A stretch of DNA of 64,000 nt from a virus (lineage: Duplodnaviria > Heunggongvirae > Uroviricota > Caudoviricetes): IMG/VR virus record IMGVR_UViG_3300028584_001242. The stretch is one strand, 5' to 3'. The notes under the pieces were generated by a model that was not told the DNA's origin, ran no database searches, and saw nothing but the letters and a program-made list of their open reading frames with translations. This document shows, in pieces, positions 1-49,928 of this stretch (positions are counted from its first letter, which is position 1; every line of letters begins with the position of its first letter). The translations under genes were made by a program, and so were the position numbers.

Positions 1-1214
1 TTGAGTTTTCACCAACAGGTGAAATAATAACAGCCAATGAGAAGTTTTTAAATTTAATGGGATACTCCCTAAATGAAATAGTAGGGAAAAAACATTCTAT
101 ATTGTGTGACAAACTATATGCAAACAGTGCTGATTACAAAAAGTTTTGGAATAAGTTAGAAGCGGGTGAATATATATCTGATATGTTTAAAAGACTTGAT
201 TCAAAACAAAAAGAAATATGGCTAGAAGCTTCTTACAATCCTATATTTGATAATAACAACAAAGTAGTAAAAGTAATAAAATTTGCAAACGATATTACTA
301 GATATGTAGAGGAAAAAAATGAAGATAAAAGTAAATTAGATGCCCTTAATTCATCTATGGCTGTTATTGAGTTTACACCTGAAGGTATTATTTTAAATGC
401 AAACAATAACTTTTTATCAACAACTGGTTATACATTAAAAGAAATAGTGGGTAAACATCATAATATATTTTGCGAAAAAGCGTATAGTCTTCATTCAGAA
501 TATAAAAGGTTTTGGCAAGATTTAAAAAATGGGCAATTTTTTAATGGTCAATTTAAAAGATTAAATAAACAAGGTAATGATATATGGCTTGAAGCAACTT
601 ATAATCCAATAAGAGACGAAAATGGAAACGTAGTTAAAATTGTTAAATTTGCAAGTGACACCACAAAATTAGTTAACCAATTAGATGCTCAAAAGAAAAG
701 TGCAGAACTTGCATTTTCAATATCAAATAATAATAAAGAAACAGCACAAATCTCAGTAACTACAATAAATGAAACAAATAATGAAATGACAAACATTATA
801 AAATCAGTCAGTGCCACAGAGATTCATTTAAAGTCATTAGAAAAACAATCTGAAAAGATTAAAATGATATTAAATGCTATATATAAGATTGCAACACAAA
901 CTAATTTGTTAGCGTTAAATGCTGCAATTGAAGCCGCCAGAGCTGGAGATGCTGGAAGAGGTTTTGCAGTAGTGGCTAAGGAAGTAAAAGAATTATCAGG
1001 CAATACAAGTGACTTAGTTAAAAGTATTTCTGAAATAATAGAGGAAATTAATAAAGAAACAGAATGTGCGGTTAAACAAATGGAAAGTGTAACTCAGAAC
1101 ACAGAAAGAAGTGTAACATTAATGATTGAAGTCGAGCAGTTAGTGACTGAAATAAGTATCGGCTCTGATAAAATATTATCAGCTATTGCCCAATTATCAA
1201 AAGAGTTAAGTTAA
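1..1214 (+). CDS. methyl-accepting chemotaxis protein with tandem PAS domains (aerotaxis-like), 5'-partial
   Basis: The reading frame is open from nt 3, upstream of the listed ATG at 57. Repeated PAS blocks ([43 protein letters not shown]) precede a C-terminal MCP signalling motif [32 protein letters not shown] terminator follows. Confidence 0.8.
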
Positions 1215-2839: not shown

Positions 2840-2915
2840 AAGTCACCTTTTCTAATTGATGTGACAGTATAACAAAAAACAGATTTTAAAGCAATCTATT
2901 TTTATAATGGAAACA

Positions 2916-2947
2916 AAAAAGGCACCCTCTCGGATGCCTTTTTTACA
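2916..2947. terminator. bidirectional terminator-like hairpin aaaaaaGGCACCCTCTCGGATGCCtttttt
   Basis: Hairpin flanked by A and T runs, downstream of small basic peptide copy 1. Confidence 0.45.
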
Positions 2948-2952
2948 GGATT

Positions 2953-3087
2953 TTACTCTGCGTCTTGATGGCGATTCCGGCGACGCTTCCGAAACTCGCT
3001 ATCTTTTTTGTGATACTTCGCTTGTTCGTTGTCTTTTTTCTTGCCACCGCGAAAACGTTCTACTGCGTCACCGAAAGAGCCTTGCAT
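2953..3087 (-). CDS. small highly basic peptide, paralog 1 (44 aa, MQGSFGDAVERFRGGKKKD...RRRNRHQDAE)
   Basis: Hand-translated. AGGAGA RBS. It lies directly behind promoter-leader module A. Two paralogs are at 9019..9153 and 49687..49818. Confidence 0.5.
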   Translation of the reverse strand: MQGSFGDAVERFRGGKKKDNEQAKYHKKDSEFRKRRRNRHQDAE

Positions 3088-3140
3088 TTTGTATCTCCTA
3101 ACATTTTAGTTTGTTTGTGTTGTTTCGTTTTGATGGGATA

Positions 3141-3169
3141 AGTATATCAAGAAGCGGTTTATCGGTCAA
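3141..3169 (-). promoter_or_regulatory. sigma70-type promoter module A: TTGACC-N17-TATACT plus conserved leader TATCCCATCAAAACGAAAC
   Basis: Minus strand: -35 box at plus 3164-3169, -10 box at plus 3141-3146, 17-nt spacer. Confidence 0.6.
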
Positions 3170-3336
3170 TCATTTTTTTTCAAAAACCTTACAAACAATT
3201 TAACCTACTGTTCGTTCATATTTAACATGATATTCAATCATCGAAGCCAACATGAAAAGAATCATGCACAAGCCGAAAGAGCCAACAAGCCATAATGGAA
3301 AAGCTTCAACTGAGAACCACTCAAAAGGTTTGCACA

Positions 3337-3525
3337 TTAGAGGTCACCATCAGTGCAAAGAGAAGGTTCATCCTTTTCCATCAACGATTCTATTTCGGCT
3401 TTACTTTCCCATTTGGCGTAACCATCTGAGTTCACCAACCGCACTTTATCATCAGTTTGGTCAATAATTCGAAACCATGCACCAAGTCCATTAACGTAAA
3501 TCTGAGCATGTGGTGTAAAAATCAT
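3337..3525 (-). CDS. hypothetical protein, 62 aa
   Basis: GGAGGG RBS. Confidence 0.45.
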   Translation of the reverse strand: MIFTPHAQIYVNGLGAWFRIIDQTDDKVRLVNSDGYAKWESKAEIESLMEKDEPSLCTDGDL

Positions 3526-5666: not shown

Positions 5667-5743
5667 TGGTGGGACTTGCAGGACTTGAACCTGCGACCTA
5701 CCGATTATGAGTCGGTTGCTCTAACCAACTGAGCTAAAGTCCC
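5667..5743 (-). tRNA. tRNA with CAU anticodon (Ile2/LAU-type or elongator Met), 77 nt, CCA encoded
   Basis: Full cloverleaf: acceptor GGGACTT/AAGTCCC, D-stem GCTC/GAGC, anticodon stem ACCGA/TCGGT with loop CTCATAA, T-loop TTCAAGT. The anticodon loop and T-stem are close to E. coli ileX as recalled from memory. Confidence 0.85.
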
Positions 5744-6033: not shown

Positions 6034-6118
6034 TGGTGCCCGGTGCCAGACTCGAACTGGCACTCCTTGCGGAAAGGGATTTTAAGTCCCTCGTGTCTAC
6101 CAATTTCACCAACCGGGC
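6034..6118 (-). tRNA. tRNA-Leu(UAA), 85 nt with long variable arm, CCA encoded
   Basis: Acceptor GCCCGGT/ACCGGGC. Anticodon stem AGGGA/TCCCT with loop CTTAAAA. Variable arm TTCCGCAAGGAGTG. T-arm GCCAG-TTCGAGT-CTGGC. Confidence 0.85.
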
Positions 6119-6280
6119 TTAATATGATATGGCCTACTCTATTTATATCTGCACCGAGTAGTTTTCCATACTTACAAGCTATATTGGCAACCGAAGTTGT
6201 TGTTCCAAAACAAGCCACTTGTAAGAAGTGCTAGTTCATTGTTGCAAGATTTTGTTTCTCCGTTTCGTCTTGATGGGATA

Positions 6281-6309
6281 ATTATAGAGAAAATCGGTGT
6301 AGTGGTCAA
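6281..6309 (-). promoter_or_regulatory. consensus sigma70 promoter module B: TTGACC-N17-TATAAT plus leader TATCCCATCAAGACGAAAC, driving the tRNA-Leu/tRNA-CAU unit
   Basis: Minus strand: -35 box at plus 6304-6309, -10 box at plus 6281-6286. The roughly 140-nt leader contains a C(UUCG)G hairpin (plus 6188-6199). Confidence 0.65.
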
Positions 6310-8700: not shown

Positions 8701-8949
8701 TTAATCGCTGATAAGGTCGTTAACATTATCCAACGTCTTAAACAGTTGAACAATAGCATTACAGTAGCATACGACGAAAGCCTCAACCACCACAACAACA
8801 CTCAAAGCAACGGCCATAAGGTGAGTGCCCAACCAAATTTGATAAACAACACCAGCCGAAGTGGACAGAATCAAGATGCTTGCCAAAACGGTCAAGGCAA
8901 GTTTAAGGTATTTCTGATTGCCGGGAACGCTTTCCGATTGATTTTTCAT
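8701..8949 (-). CDS. small membrane protein, 82 aa (2 TM)
   Basis: Hydrophobic segments. GAGG RBS. Confidence 0.5.
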   Translation of the reverse strand: MKNQSESVPGNQKYLKLALTVLASILILSTSAGVVYQIWLGTHLMAVALSVVVVVEAFVVCYCNAIVQLFKTLDNVNDLISD

Positions 8950-9018
8950 GATGACAAACCTCGTTAAAGAAAGACTTAAGCAAGACAGCAGTAGACTGGC
9001 TACTGCTTGGCTGGTTTA

Positions 9019-9153
9019 TTACTCGGCGTCTTGATGACGATTACGGCGTTTTTTACGAAAATCGTTATCTTTTTTGTGATATTTTGCCTGTTCAGTGTCT
9101 TTTTTCTTGCCGCCACGAAAACGTTCTACTGCGTCACCGAAAGAACCTTGCAT
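9019..9153 (-). CDS. small highly basic peptide, paralog 2 (44 aa, MQGSFGDAVERFRGGKKKDTEQAKYHKKDNDFRKKRRNRHQDAE)
   Basis: Hand-translated. AAAGGAT RBS. It sits behind the promoter-leader module at 9195..9275. Confidence 0.5.
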   Translation of the reverse strand: MQGSFGDAVERFRGGKKKDTEQAKYHKKDNDFRKKRRNRHQDAE

Positions 9154-9194
9154 GTTTTGTATCCTTTTAACTGGTTATGATAAGTAAGCATTAA

Positions 9195-9275
9195 CAAGGG
9201 TAAAGACTTACTGGGTTGCTCGCCCCTTGCCGCTTCAACATGGTTATTATATCAAAGTAAATCGTCAAAAACAAT
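9195..9275 (-). promoter_or_regulatory. repeated promoter-leader module (TGaTATAAT extended -10, leader hairpin CAAGGG...CCCTTG); copy of 39608..39690
   Basis: The -10 box is at plus 9246-9251 on the minus strand. The hairpin spans 9195-9229. The block matches 39620-39672 across about 45 nt. Confidence 0.5.
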
Positions 9276-11188: not shown

Positions 11189-11340
11189 AATGTTAGTTCT
11201 CCGTTATTTGATGTTTCTATTATAGCACTTTCAGCCAAATTAGACAATAAAAACTTTCAAAAATCAGCCACTTGCAATCAAAAATAACAGGAGTATACTT
11301 ATAAATTAGATAGCAAGCTAACAATATAAAAGGTGATAAA

Positions 11341-11898: not shown

Positions 11899-11917
11899 CG
11901 TTTGTATCTTAAATTAG

Positions 11918-11990
11918 GAGGACCGACTGGGACTCGAACCCAGAATTCATCCGGTTAAGGACGCTTGTTCCCGTTAAACACCACCGGCCC
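11918..11990 (-). tRNA. tRNA-like gene with a contracted 6-nt anticodon loop (possible non-canonical tRNA or pseudo-tRNA)
   Basis: Acceptor GGGCCGG/TCGGTCC with two G-U pairs, D-arm TGTT-TAACGGG-AACA, canonical T-arm CTGGG-TTCGAGT-CCCAG. The anticodon arm folds only as CGTCC-TTAACC-GGATG. It has its own consensus promoter and terminator. Confidence 0.5.
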
Positions 11991-12036
11991 ATATATTACA
12001 TGTATCAAGATTTAGTTGCTTCGTCTTGATGTGATT

Positions 12037-12065
12037 ATTATATAGAAAACAGGCGTAGCTGTCAA
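12037..12065 (-). promoter_or_regulatory. consensus sigma70 promoter module C: TTGACA-N17-TATAAT plus leader AATCACATCAAGACGAAGC
   Basis: The -35 box is at plus 12060-12065 and the -10 box at plus 12037-12042. It drives the tRNA-like gene. Confidence 0.65.
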
Positions 12066-20309: not shown

Positions 20310-20380
20310 CTATTTGATTAATGGGGCAAGTATACCCCATTTTTACAAGGATGTCATTTATTTCTTATGAAAACTATTTT

Positions 20381-24569: not shown

Positions 24570-24641
24570 TTTTGATTTCCTTCACTTCGTTGATTTGATG
24601 GGTGTAGTATACCGAAAAACTCTTATTTGGACAAGCTTTTT

Positions 24642-26815: not shown

Positions 26816-27937
26816 TTACTCGGGAATATCGACTTGTTTACGAGCAAACACCATGATAGCGGCTTGCTTGTAATCAATTTCATTGCCCGAATACTTACTG
26901 ATCAAGACATGCAGCAACAATGGAGCCACTTCTTTGGCTTTACGAGCGTAATCGCCACGTTCCAAACCTTTGTGTTCTTCATAGAAACTTTCAACGGTGC
27001 GAACAAGGTAGTGGTAGCTTTTACGGGCGTAGTCTTCTACTTCATCCAAGCGAGCCAGAATTTCAGCCAGTGGGAAGTTATCGCTGTGCGTCCGGTAATG
27101 ATACAGCGAACGAATTTCGTCCAAAATTTCGTGAAGAGTTGCTTCATAAATAACCTGACGCTCTTTCGACCGATCCTGAATATTGACCACTGCCGACATT
27201 TTCAGGTAAGGGATTGTTTTGACCTTATACATATCAGGGCCAAATTCAACTACATAACCCTCAATTTCAGGGTCATTAACGTTGAGTTCATTGATAGGGA
27301 TACGTTTCACCAAATGGGCCGCAATAACCGGGTATTTGGCAGCAAATTCAGCAGAACGAATATCGACATAAGCACCAGTGCTCATATCACGGGCTTTCAG
27401 GATATGAACAGAATAATCAGTGTATTCAATGAACACGCGGTTCTTGGGCGTGGTCAATTCCAAGTCAACCGAAACACCAGTGCGGGTCAACCGTTCAATA
27501 TCAGCATGCAACTCAGGGCTGATAGATTTTTCAACAAGGTCATAATTGGCAAAAGTTGGCTTCTTTTTGCTCTTGTAGTAAAGCGTATCGTTAACTGGCG
27601 AGATATAGCTGGTCAGCAGGGAACCATCTGGCTTCAAGTAAGCATGATCCGCTTCTTCGGGCTTGATCTTCTGAGTTTCTGGAGTTTCACCGAGCGAGAA
27701 GAATTTCTGCATTGGCAATGCCACCAGCACTGGCTCATCACCGCCCATGTAGAACATGACCCCACGGCAATCTTTAGCACCCGGAAGTTTGAATTCAGAG
27801 TGCTTTGGAATGTCATAGTTGAAGACACGGTAAGTCCCGCCGTCTACTGCTGAGGTTTCATCCCCGTATTTAAAAGACCCCGGATTAGTAACCAACAGGT
27901 TCATCAGTTGGGCATACAGTTCTTGTTGATAAGTCAT
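26816..27937 (-). CDS. RNA ligase, Rnl1 family (T4 gene 63-like), about 373 aa
   Basis: Motif I KPDGSLL. The N-terminal block YRVFNYDIP...CRGVMFYMGGDEP...QKFFSLGE is colinear with T4 Rnl1 as recalled from memory. Confidence 0.8.
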   Translation of the reverse strand: MTYQQELYAQLMNLLVTNPGSFKYGDETSAVDGGTYRVFNYDIPKHSEFKLPGAKDCRGVMFYMGGDEPVLVALPMQKFFSLGETPETQKIKPEEADHAYLKPDGSLLTSYISPVNDTLYYKSKKKPTFANYDLVEKSISPELHADIERLTRTGVSVDLELTTPKNRVFIEYTDYSVHILKARDMSTGAYVDIRSAEFAAKYPVIAAHLVKRIPINELNVNDPEIEGYVVEFGPDMYKVKTIPYLKMSAVVNIQDRSKERQVIYEATLHEILDEIRSLYHYRTHSDNFPLAEILARLDEVEDYARKSYHYLVRTVESFYEEHKGLERGDYARKAKEVAPLLLHVLISKYSGNEIDYKQAAIMVFARKQVDIPE

Positions 27938-27994
27938 GTGAATCTCCACAATTAAATTTGTCTGAATGTATTATATCAAAAACTGATTTTTAAT

Positions 27995-28906: not shown

Positions 28907-30028
28907 TTAAACGGGCGGGGACAAGTCGCCAAGCTCAATTTGTTCCAACGACCAATCCACCAGATGGTTTTTAGAGTAGTGATACAAGTAGTCGTTTTTG
29001 TGACCACGAATCGCCCCCATAACAAAACCAAAGTGTTTATGGCCTTTGAGCTGAATTGCAGCAGCTTTCACGTCAACACCTTTGAATTCAGCAGCAATAT
29101 TATCAACTTCTTTCGACAACGCTTCAATCGAAGCTTTGATAGCGTCATTGATTCGATAAATCTCACTCAAATCAGCCGTTGGCGAATTCAGCGACAAATA
29201 AGCGATGTAATCATCAAGTTTTTCTTCAACCACCAACCGAGCAATATCACGCTCCCGAACAAAGCTAACCGCATGATGGAGGTTCATATACCATTTGGTT
29301 TTGATTTTGATCATGTTACCGTTAACGAATTGAATAACATAGCCTTCAATCCCTTCAACAGTGTTCAGCGACTTCAACAGGGAAGCCAAATCAAATTCTT
29401 CACCAAACAGAGGCTTGTTAACAGGAATATCAAACAACAACGCCAGTTGGTCTTTTTCAGCAGGCATTAAGTAATCGCCTGTGATGTTGTGACGAACATG
29501 AAGCAATGTCATGTTGTCTTCGTCATAACGCAAAACGATACGATGTTTTGGCGAAGTAAATTCAAAAATAGGGGTCAGTTGGGCCTGAGAGCAATATTTA
29601 GTGAACTCGTAGTATTTCTGGTTGCGAGACACAAAGCCTTCTGCCGAAACAGCCACATCCGATTTGAACGACTTCTTGGATTTAGCAAAGAATTCGCCTT
29701 TGAACAGCCCTGTGGTAATCATGGAGCCATCCATTTTATCAAACCCGGCTACCATCGTGCTCCAATCCAAAACGGCTGGCTGGACTTCTGCCCGCTCTGC
29801 CAAGTTAAAGAATTTGTGCAATGGACGCGACAGGATTTTACCATTGTCGTCAAAAGTAATACCGCGAGCTTCTTTTTCAACCGGAGTGTTGAAAGAGTCA
29901 CCGTTGCTGATGTTGTAGCAAACGATATCGGCACCGTTATCCTGTTTATTAACAGAAATATAGGCACGGTCTTTGATATGAGGAATCATATCATCAAGGG
30001 TTTCAATACGCGGGAAGATGCTGGACAT
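28907..30028 (-). CDS. RNA ligase, Rnl1 family, second paralog, 373 aa
   Basis: Motif I KMDGSMI, block ARGITFDDNGKILSRPLHKFFNLAE. Same architecture as 26816..27937. Confidence 0.75.
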   Translation of the reverse strand: MSSIFPRIETLDDMIPHIKDRAYISVNKQDNGADIVCYNISNGDSFNTPVEKEARGITFDDNGKILSRPLHKFFNLAERAEVQPAVLDWSTMVAGFDKMDGSMITTGLFKGEFFAKSKKSFKSDVAVSAEGFVSRNQKYYEFTKYCSQAQLTPIFEFTSPKHRIVLRYDEDNMTLLHVRHNITGDYLMPAEKDQLALLFDIPVNKPLFGEEFDLASLLKSLNTVEGIEGYVIQFVNGNMIKIKTKWYMNLHHAVSFVRERDIARLVVEEKLDDYIAYLSLNSPTADLSEIYRINDAIKASIEALSKEVDNIAAEFKGVDVKAAAIQLKGHKHFGFVMGAIRGHKNDYLYHYSKNHLVDWSLEQIELGDLSPPV

Positions 30029-35787: not shown

Positions 35788-35890
35788 TTTTTAATCCTTG
35801 CTGATGAGTTTTGATGAACAGATTATAATGGAAAATATCATTTTTGACAACAACGTTTTTCATTAAAATGAAAAAACCGCCTAAGCGGTC

Positions 35891-39607: not shown

Positions 39608-39690
39608 CAAGGGGAAAGGCTTATTTGATTGCTCGCCCCTTGCTGCTTCGATGGAGTAATTATATCAATATCGAACTAGATAATCAATGT
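39608..39690 (-). promoter_or_regulatory. repeated promoter-leader module (TGaTATAAT, leader hairpin CAAGGGG...CCCCTTG); copy of 9195..9275
   Basis: The -10 box is at plus 39659-39664. The hairpin spans 39608-39642. Confidence 0.5.
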
Positions 39691-49562: not shown

Positions 49563-49590
49563 AAAAAAACCACTCGAAAGTGGTCTTAGT
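49563..49590 (-). terminator. terminator ACCACU-UUCG-AGUGGU plus U7 (minus strand)
   Basis: It ends the unit formed by basic peptide 3 and the tRNA-like gene. Confidence 0.6.
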
Positions 49591-49597
49591 GTATAAA

Positions 49598-49670
49598 GGC
49601 TGTATGATGGGACTCGAACCCACGACTACCGTTTTTCGACGGAGTTCTGCCGACTGAACTACAAACAGCC
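49598..49670 (-). tRNA. tRNA-like gene with a contracted 6-nt anticodon loop, CCA not encoded
   Basis: D-arm GTTC-AGTCGGCA-GAAC (A14, G18/G19), T-arm GTGGG-TTCGAGT-CCCAT, 6/7-bp acceptor. The anticodon arm folds only as CCGT-CGAAAA-ACGG. It lies immediately downstream of basic-peptide gene 3. Confidence 0.45.
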
Positions 49671-49686
49671 AAAACTGTAAAATTCT

Positions 49687-49818
49687 TTATTCGTTAATGT
49701 GACGATCACGACGCTTCTTTCGCCAGTTCTTGTCTTGCTCATGAGTTTTTGCTTTTTCTGTGTCACGTTTTTTACCACCACGGAAACGTTCTGTTGCGTC
49801 ACCAAATGAACCTTGCAT
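49687..49818 (-). CDS. small highly basic peptide, paralog 3 (43 aa, MQGSFGDATERFRGGKKRDTEKAKTHEQDKNWRKKRRDRHINE)
   Basis: In-frame internal ATG of listed ORF 49687..49869. A TGTATAAT -10 box lies about 30 nt upstream. Confidence 0.5.
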   Translation of the reverse strand: MQGSFGDATERFRGGKKRDTEKAKTHEQDKNWRKKRRDRHINE

Positions 49819-49928
49819 AATATAAATACCTTTGTTTATTAGACTTTTATTATACATCAAAAAGCACATTAAGTAAATAGCAAAAATGATATTTTTTAAA
49901 AACTTTTTAATGGTCTAAAAATATCCCA

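Follow-up and report, generated by a model that had tools for sequence, protein, structure and literature searches.

The 64,000-nt IMG/VR record IMGVR_UViG_3300028584_001242, analyzed here over its whole length and referred to as the window, encodes three short, basic and mutually related proteins of 43 or 44 residues, all on the minus strand (copies 1, 2 and 3; Table 1). The original prediction, made from the sequence alone, had described three related open reading frames (ORFs) at these positions, and both their translation and a profile search bear this out: the six-frame translation of the window contains exactly three matches to the family profile (E = 1e-27 to 1e-24), the next match lying at E = 0.85. 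Copies 1 and 2 share 91% identity in protein and 86% in DNA, and the identity between copies 1 and 3 is 65%. With 14 Lys or Arg residues among 44, 44 and 43, respectively, the full-length copies contain 32-33% of these residues and not the roughly 40% first put forward; a content of about 40-41% is reached only when residues 11-44 are counted. Their Asp and Glu content is 18%, their net charge +6 and their pI 10.1-10.4. The existence of the three ORFs is thus confirmed, while their composition and, as described below, the details of their expression signals had been overstated.

Analysis of the reading frames was used to weigh whether these ORFs are genes at all. The ORFs could have arisen by chance within repeated DNA that does not code for protein, or the true genes could be those antisense to them on the plus strand (2907..3101 and 9007..9180); at copies 1 and 2 a greedy longest-ORF caller indeed settles on the plus strand, where the ORFs are longer, and the surrounding sequence recurs as a DNA repeat. 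However, the annotated minus-strand frame is the only one open in all 12 distinct homologous copies, the best alternative, which is antisense, being open in 9 of 12, so that the antisense ORFs were rejected as true genes. Synonymous changes also predominate in the minus-strand frame, and in the copies that were inspected the ATG is preceded by a Shine-Dalgarno sequence. The comparison of copy 1 with copy 2 counts 12.5 changes as synonymous and 5.5 as non-synonymous (dS 0.80, dN 0.05, dN/dS 0.07), and dN/dS stays below 0.6 for every pair of copies with an estimable dS, dS being saturated in many pairs. We consider a non-coding origin, or a gene on the opposite strand, barely credible.

Positional orthologs were found on other large contigs for copy 1 (loci L018, L038 and L005), copy 2 (L038) and copy 3 (L020 and L025), with dN/dS values of about 0.03-0.24 relative to the window copies. 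For copy 1 against its three orthologs, dN is 0-0.05 and dS 0.13-1.4; for copy 2 against its ortholog in L038, on a 1.917 Mb contig, 7 synonymous (Sd) and 4 non-synonymous (Nd) differences were obtained. The paralogs are judged to be old, because synonymous sites are near saturation, and each has by its substitution pattern been kept separately under selection. As homologs exist and their substitutions are mostly synonymous, the gene call withstood this examination: as far as sequence comparison can establish it, the three ORFs are shown to be paralogs of a real, conserved protein family of 41-46 residues.

The family forms 16 clusters at 90% identity in a database of 5.8 billion proteins. When 1.84 billion representatives were searched exhaustively with HMMER, 29 matches resulted, all unannotated; these are standalone proteins of 41-46 residues except for a few N-terminally extended ORF calls and one weak match to a 484-aa repeat protein. 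In entries of 56-74 residues the start was called too far upstream, so that the frame runs through the promoter. The consensus reads M-Q-G-S-[FYH]-x-[DE]-x-x-E-[KR]-F ... K-x-K-D ... [DS]-[RK]-x-[FW]-R-x-x-R-[RQ]-N-R-H. The source records label the members just "hypothetical protein". The earlier remark that the peptides resemble no recognized family held in all curated collections searched: Pfam and NCBIfam returned nothing except a 13-bit low-complexity match to TatA (cut-off 121), with no Pfam match at E ≤ 10, PHROG no family at E ≤ 0.1, PADLOC no family at E ≤ 10 for four diverse members, and the family profile no PDB sequence at E ≤ 10, although many PDB entries derive from ribosome structures. 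Copy 1 likewise found no tblastn match at E ≤ 1 in 50,697 phage records, mostly from cultured phages such as T4-like coliphages, and literature searches for the peptide motif and for phages larger than 1 Mb yielded nothing relevant.

Members of the family occur on IMG/VR viral contigs of 150-290 kb, with at least six copies in loci taken from one contig, and on contigs of about 1.85-1.92 Mb. Among the genomes of the GTDB species set a single locus was found, L001 (DJWL01000096.1), in a metagenome-assembled genome (MAG) labeled Flavobacteriaceae UBA6231, where tRNA genes lie 0.5-1.5 kb downstream of the family member; another cluster of the family includes a protein from a Bdellovibrionales MAG. 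These members in MAGs of unrelated bacterial phyla could be mis-binned viral contigs. Across the databases covered, the family is shown by its sequence matches to be confined to huge phage-like genomes of one uncultured group, with several copies per genome. Proteins this small routinely go undetected or keep the label "hypothetical"; here, a well-supported multi-copy family on strong-looking expression cassettes was recovered, and it marks an uncultured lineage with megabase-scale contigs.

Table 1. Coordinates of the peptide genes, their candidate expression signals and associated features in the window.
Feature	Position	Strand	Details
Copy 1 coding sequence	2953..3087	-	44 aa, MQGSFGDAVERFRGGKKKDNEQAKYHKKDSEFRKRRRNRHQDAE; HMM E = 1.4e-27
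Copy 1 Shine-Dalgarno sequence	3095..3099	-	AGGAG, 7 nt before ATG; read from the sequence
Copy 1 initial transcribed sequence/leader	3122..3135	-	CATCAAAACGAAAC; conserved
Copy 1 promoter, sigma-70 type	3141..3169	-	TTGACC-17-TATACT, TG before -10, 10/12, A-tract upstream
Copy 1 bidirectional intrinsic terminator	2914..2945	-	A6-GGCATCC-GAGA-GGGTGCC-T6; -19.4 kcal/mol, z = -5.1
Copy 2 coding sequence	9019..9153	-	44 aa, MQGSFGDAVERFRGGKKKDTEQAKYHKKDNDFRKKRRNRHQDAE
Copy 2 promoter-like site	9177..9204	-	TTTACC-16-TATCAT, 9/12; one such match expected there by chance
Copy 2 hairpin, doubtful terminator	8987..9007	-	No U-run; -12.1 kcal/mol, z = -2.3
Copy 3 coding sequence	49687..49818	-	43 aa, MQGSFGDATERFRGGKKRDTEKAKTHEQDKNWRKKRRDRHINE
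Copy 3 promoter	49849..49877	-	TTTACT-17-TATAAT, 10/12
tRNA-like gene	49598..49668	-	6-nt anticodon loop CGAAAA; Rfam tRNA 42.9 bits; 18 nt after copy 3 stop
Intrinsic terminator closing copy 3 and tRNA-like unit	49566..49587	-	-9.3 kcal/mol, z = -3.95
Promoter of the same class	6262..6309	-	TTGACC-17-TATAAT + CATCAAGACGAAAC; drives tRNA-Leu(UAA) 6034..6118 and tRNA-Met 5667..5743
-10 box with the same leader motif	12018..12042	-	CATCAAGACGAAGC; 28 nt before tRNA-like gene 11917..11990
Promoter class, full matches	3122..3146, 6262..6286, 12018..12042	-	
Promoter class, weaker matches	24595..24611, 20318..20334, 35811..35827, 39648..39664, 11208..11224	-	Share only CATCAA
Two paralogous T4-type RNA ligase 1 (Rnl1-like) genes	26816..27949 and 28907..30028	-	About 1 kb apart

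Expression cassettes and their linkage to tRNA genes

Each copy had been described as having a good Shine-Dalgarno sequence and its own strong promoter and terminator. This description fits copy 1, in which the minus strand reads, from 5′ to 3′, A-tract, promoter, TATCC-CATCAAAACGAAAC, CA-rich leader, AGGAG, 7 nt, ATG, coding sequence and terminator. The terminator was missed by the terminator scan, probably because its stem absorbs the T-run. The signals of copy 2 are weak, and an alternative extended -10 element (TGATATAAT) can be read by eye about 95 nt upstream; since its hairpin has no U-run, the copy 2 transcript may read into an ORF at 8701..8949 for an 82-aa membrane protein. For copy 3, the Shine-Dalgarno sequence is a weak AAGG, and the terminator is not private, because it lies downstream of a tRNA-like gene. 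Comparison with related loci showed that window positions 2911..3150 (about 245 bp) match many loci at 70-80% identity with unrelated flanks. The cassette of promoter, leader, Shine-Dalgarno sequence, coding sequence and terminator behaves, to judge from these matches, as a self-contained expression unit recurring across genomic contexts.

Directly upstream of the copy 1 promoter lies a hydrophobic 45-aa ORF (MCKPFEWFSVEAFPLWLVGSFGLCMILFMLASMIEYHVKYERTVG, 3200..3337, minus strand), and at the counterpart position of the related loci L002 and L038 a gene of 44-45 aa is called.

The strongest contextual clue, overlooked in the original prediction, is a link to tRNA genes. The 47 copies of the family were collapsed to 31 distinct cassettes, and in 7 of these a tRNA or tRNA-like gene on the same strand starts at most 40 nt past the stop codon, a placement seen for none of 572 other ORFs of the same sequences (Fisher p = 4.7e-10). 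The statistics behind this association, which had not been reported before, are solid. The gene that follows the peptide gene is tRNA-Arg(UCU) in three cases, tRNA-Leu(UAA) in one, and a tRNA-like gene with an odd anticodon loop in three. In all seven, one or more tRNA or tRNA-like genes lie 7-32 nt after the stop codon and ahead of the terminator, a layout that implies a single transcript for the peptide mRNA and the tRNA. The tRNA-like gene that follows copy 3 is kept in L020, where the loop is still CGAAAA and the anticodon stem has changed in a compensatory manner; the syntenic locus L025 contains the copy 3 ortholog without this gene, the two arrangements differing by a clean 95-nt indel directly after the stop codon.

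tRNA-like genes with a 6-nt anticodon loop, for which ARAGORN gives a two-base "anticodon", were found at 49598..49668 and 11917..11990 on the minus strand of the window, and at L017:4359-4435 and L023:3700-3779. Such genes may encode tRNA mimics or decoys that do not decode.

Peptide and tRNA genes also share a class of promoter. The -10 box and leader CATCAARACGAARC of copy 1 form an element that also precedes the tRNA genes at 6118 and 11990. For the class defined as TATAMT-N4-CATCAA, 0.22 matches would be expected in the window and 8 were found; the match extends to CATCAARACGAARC at the peptide and tRNA units. In the window and the related loci, the full leader motif lies upstream of 28 peptide genes, 5 tRNA genes or units and 13 other sites. 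The conserved initial transcribed sequence of this promoter class is an unusual feature. The possibility that a degenerate peptide gene lies between tRNA-Leu and the promoter at 6286 was rejected, this interval offering just ATG-AAC-TAG and no blast similarity.

This arrangement raised the question of whether the ORF acts in cis, as a translated leader that regulates or protects the downstream tRNA transcript by tRNA-Arg(UCU) attenuation or Rho shielding, the peptide itself being unimportant. The short distance to the tRNAs in 7 of the 31 cassettes, the three occurrences of tRNA-Arg(UCU) and the Arg-rich peptide all suit such a leader. However, AGA and AGG (AGR) codons are almost absent from the family: they account for none of the 20 Arg codons of the window copies and for one of about 280 across 41 copies, against 24% in the ORFs of the window, which is the opposite of what a sensor of tRNA-Arg(UCU) would show, and a leader peptide of that kind was rejected. 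Codons read by the downstream tRNAs, mainly tRNA-Arg(UCU) and tRNA-Leu(UAA), are thus not enriched as in an attenuation leader, Leu being almost absent from the peptides as well. In addition, 24 of the 31 cassettes end in their own terminator without a tRNA, that of copy 1 being strong; L025 retains the gene without the tRNA-like gene; and purifying selection acts on the amino-acid sequence over its whole length. A role restricted to cis regulation is therefore very improbable. The near-absence of AGR codons fits a gene that would be highly expressed and independent of phage-supplied tRNAs.

Peptides and tRNA genes in similar arrangements are known from two systems. The closest is the early tRNA region of bacteriophage T5 (NC_005859, about 28-36 kb), where small ORFs, for example T5.059, T5.065, T5.068 and T5.070, follow the order promoter, ORF of 27-96 aa and one or more tRNAs 0-25 nt further on, on the same strand. 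This region also contains tRNA-like stable RNAs and HNH endonuclease genes, the same ingredients as in the window and related loci. The T5 ORFs differ in being heterogeneous (pI 4.2-10) and mutually unrelated, whereas a single conserved multi-copy family is found here, with copies mostly standing alone with their own terminator. When the family profile was run against 15 ORFs of the T5 tRNA region, hmmsearch reported 13 of them, all with negative bit scores; the likeness is thus one of arrangement and not of homology. The second system is Tpr of Escherichia coli (b1229), a 29-aa Arg-rich "protamine-like protein" encoded on the tyrT-tyrV tRNA transcript under a strong stable-RNA promoter (PMC3141248). 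A small basic peptide on a tRNA transcript is also what the layout of the seven tRNA-containing cassettes, copy 3 among them, implies, but tpr is a single-copy chromosomal gene located downstream of the tRNAs inside the rttR RNA, whereas the peptide gene precedes the tRNA here. Homology to Tpr was rejected (hhalign probability 0.8% over 3 columns).

Conserved residues, predicted structure and possible functions

An AlphaFold2 model based on a 38-sequence alignment predicts a helix at residues 5-12, a Gly/Lys loop and a second helix at residues 20-37, that is, a helix-loop-helix with an Arg-rich C-terminal helix (mean pLDDT 78, about 90 across residues 21-40). Foldseek found no PDB structure similar to this model and one meaningless BFVD match, an outcome to be expected with a hairpin of 44 residues. 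Conserved residues are located at both ends of the protein (M1-S4, D7, E10 and F12; R33, R36, R39 and H40), which suggests a specific target or partner over bulk charge.

The C-terminal half recalls the arginine-rich-motif RNA-binding peptides. In lambda and P22 N, HIV Rev and HIV Tat, RNA is bound by a short, helical, Arg-rich segment. The segment R33-x-x-R36-R37-N38-R39-H40, with its neighboring aromatic residue, is similar in kind and is predicted to be helical to residue 37; no homology is claimed. The conserved N-terminal motif has no counterpart in these peptides, and the leader CATCAARACGAARC does not look self-complementary by eye. Two other candidates were rejected. First, bS21, when encoded by phages, is a small, basic, helical protein common in large phages, and F-x-D-A-x-x-R-F in the family superficially resembles F-D-V-A-L-R-R-F in bS21; hhalign gave a probability of 0.7% over 10 columns, with bS21 sequences entered by hand, and Pfam and PDB gave no match at E ≤ 10. 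Secondly, the C-terminal "RNR" tripeptide recalls the RNR motif of the RNase P protein; no Pfam match was obtained at E ≤ 10, and the likeness is treated here as a coincidence in an Arg-rich segment.

The N-terminal conservation allows a different function, that of a packaged, DNA-neutralizing internal peptide. The motif MQGS[FYH]xDxxE would then be a capsid-targeting and prohead-protease signal, and cleavage after Glu10 would leave 33-34 residues with about 41% Lys/Arg, packed with the genome and possibly injected. T4 internal proteins carry a 10-residue signal with a final Glu, after which they are cut, and the surroundings of Glu10 resemble the sites, (S/A/G)-x-E, at which the head protease of phiKZ cleaves. 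With Glu10 conserved in at least 90% of members, the sequence would be compatible with cleavage; position 8 is mostly Ala, Ser or Gly, but in a substantial minority of members it is Met, Thr, Leu, Ile or Cys. The multiple copies suggest a stoichiometric need, charge neutralization could matter for huge genomes, and the computed net charge rises from +6 to +8 after cleavage.

The original prediction had compared the peptides with the T4 internal proteins or other injected proteins. IPI, IPII and IPIII are indeed basic phage proteins, and their genes adjoin the T4 tRNA cluster, which the conserved N-terminal 10-mer ending in Glu and the tRNA-gene link of the family would parallel. They differ in length, about 95-190 aa against 44 aa, and the family has a conserved C-terminus as well and promoters of the tRNA, sigma-70 class. 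No homology to T4 internal proteins was detected by tblastn against the 50,697 phage records (E ≤ 1) or in PHROGs (E ≤ 0.1). The view of a real, conserved, basic, multi-copy family without a curated match was thus retained, while the T4 analogy found no positive support, the tblastn search being null and the promoters being of the tRNA class.

Packaging in general meets the same difficulties. No relative was found among the phage records; sigma-70 promoters with a -35 box, common to the tRNA genes, would be unusual for late virion genes, and because they are shared with tRNA genes, early or stable-RNA-like expression fits better than late virion expression. The C-terminal residues are conserved specifically, beyond mere basicity, and capsid, portal and protease genes were not identified in scans of the window. 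We regard a packaged peptide as unlikely; if it were nevertheless packaged, it would represent a protamine-like answer to the packing of an exceptionally large genome.

We favor, with a probability of roughly 40%, a small RNA-binding protein that is produced in abundance along with the tRNAs of the phage, its target being tRNA or the ribosome. The sharing of promoters and, to judge from the layout, often of transcripts with tRNA genes suggests, short of proof, a role connected with RNA or translation over one in DNA packaging. An RNA target is preferred for three reasons: co-regulation with tRNAs, conservation of specific residues and a neighborhood centered on tRNA, with tRNAs, tRNA-like RNAs and two Rnl1 paralogs. 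The host RNA polymerase would make the peptide early and in large amounts and, where a tRNA follows the peptide gene, host RNase P would split it from the mRNA, a separation established for bacterial polycistronic tRNA transcripts. The peptide would fold as a small helix-loop-helix and bind RNA, most likely tRNA or the ribosome, through its conserved Arg-rich C-terminal helix (F/W32, R33, R36, R37, N38, R39 and H40). It would act in a translation and tRNA toolkit together with the tRNAs, the tRNA-like RNAs and the two T4-type RNA ligase 1 genes of the window. A peptide bound to tRNA or the ribosome would be a new component of translation takeover by very large phages.

Several points weigh against an RNA-binding protein. 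RNA binding, its target and the timing of expression are inferred, a 44-mer modeled by AlphaFold as two helices carries little weight, and no similarity to solved ribosomal or RNA-binding proteins emerged from the PDB profile, Foldseek or bS21 comparisons. The adjacency to tRNA genes may reflect just shared strong early promoters, because unrelated small ORFs of T5 also directly precede tRNAs. In the comparison of 7 of 31 with 0 of 572, the 31 cassettes are phylogenetically non-independent and represent perhaps 4-6 separate junctions, and the background ORFs were drawn from loci chosen around peptide genes. Moreover, 24 of the 31 cassettes have no adjacent tRNA within 40 nt, and the leader motif also precedes at least one other recurrent gene: most of the 13 other sites appear to be a single site that recurs along with its upstream sequence.

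The promoters, which look early and strong, would also suit a host-takeover or anti-defense factor made immediately on infection and acting on a host protein such as an anticodon nuclease, Rho, RNA polymerase or an RNase. This is a common mode of action among small early phage proteins, the conserved residues at both termini are specific, and the nearby Rnl1 paralogs and tRNA-like RNAs carry a theme of tRNA repair. On the other hand, several divergent copies per genome would be unusual for an inhibitor needed at low stoichiometry, known anti-defense mimics are usually acidic and not basic, and neither PHROG nor PADLOC, whose models cover defense and not anti-defense, returned a match. A protein target of this sort is thus improbable, about on a par with packaging.

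A more elaborate form of the RNA-binding protein that we favor can be imagined, as a dedicated partner of the phage tRNAs and of the tRNA-like RNAs with 6-nt anticodon loops. The peptide would form small ribonucleoproteins with them, or shield or mark them against host anticodon nucleases, and together with the two RNA ligase 1 genes it would constitute a module for tRNA-centered counter-defense and translation takeover in the phage-like lineage of about 1.85-1.92 Mb. We offer this as speculation, with the odds well against it.

The genome carrying the family

The window contains about 120 ORFs with a median length of 137 aa, two thirds of them on the minus strand. Among the 71 larger ORFs, 5 Pfam and 17 PHROG families were matched, including HNH endonucleases, RNA ligase, exonuclease, Nudix, CinA and GNAT proteins, and the remainder are mostly small orphan ORFs; a Pfam scan of the ten largest ORFs added a chemoreceptor with PAS domains, a DUF2807 protein and a Band 7 protein. 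No capsid, portal, protease or terminase gene was identified in the Pfam and PHROG scans of the window ORFs. One of the Rnl1 paralogs is 31% identical to a T4-like RnlA and the other 42% identical to the ligase of the jumbo Ralstonia phage RsoM2USA. A polynucleotide kinase gene was not noticed in the window.

Megablast of the window against the phage records matched the tRNAs alone. Kinship of this genome with T4 is not demonstrable; it belongs to an uncultured group with contigs of up to about 1.9 Mb. IMG/VR classes related contigs of 150-437 kb as viral. The exact peptides of the window are recorded on a 1,851,360-bp JGI contig, and relatives occur on three independent contigs: Ga0308158_10000001 (1,859,102 bp; loci L018-L020, L023 and L033), Ga0370506_000001 (1,917,244 bp; L038) and ERZ27281805 k141_522346 (1,843,594 bp; L039). 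Every neighborhood examined on the megabase contigs consists of small orphan ORFs on the same strand and is as phage-like as the window, which appears, from these matches, to belong to a phage-like genome of about 1.85 Mb. According to a September 2026 review, no member of Duplodnaviria, the realm that includes the tailed phages, exceeds 1 Mb (PMC13598248). If the lineage of about 1.85-1.92 Mb is truly phage, its genomes would lie far above those of any described phage in size.

The PAS-domain chemoreceptor belongs to the methyl-accepting chemotaxis proteins (MCPsignal E = 3e-32) and is encoded near the start of the window, on the plus strand (57..1214); such a gene is surprising in a phage-like genome.

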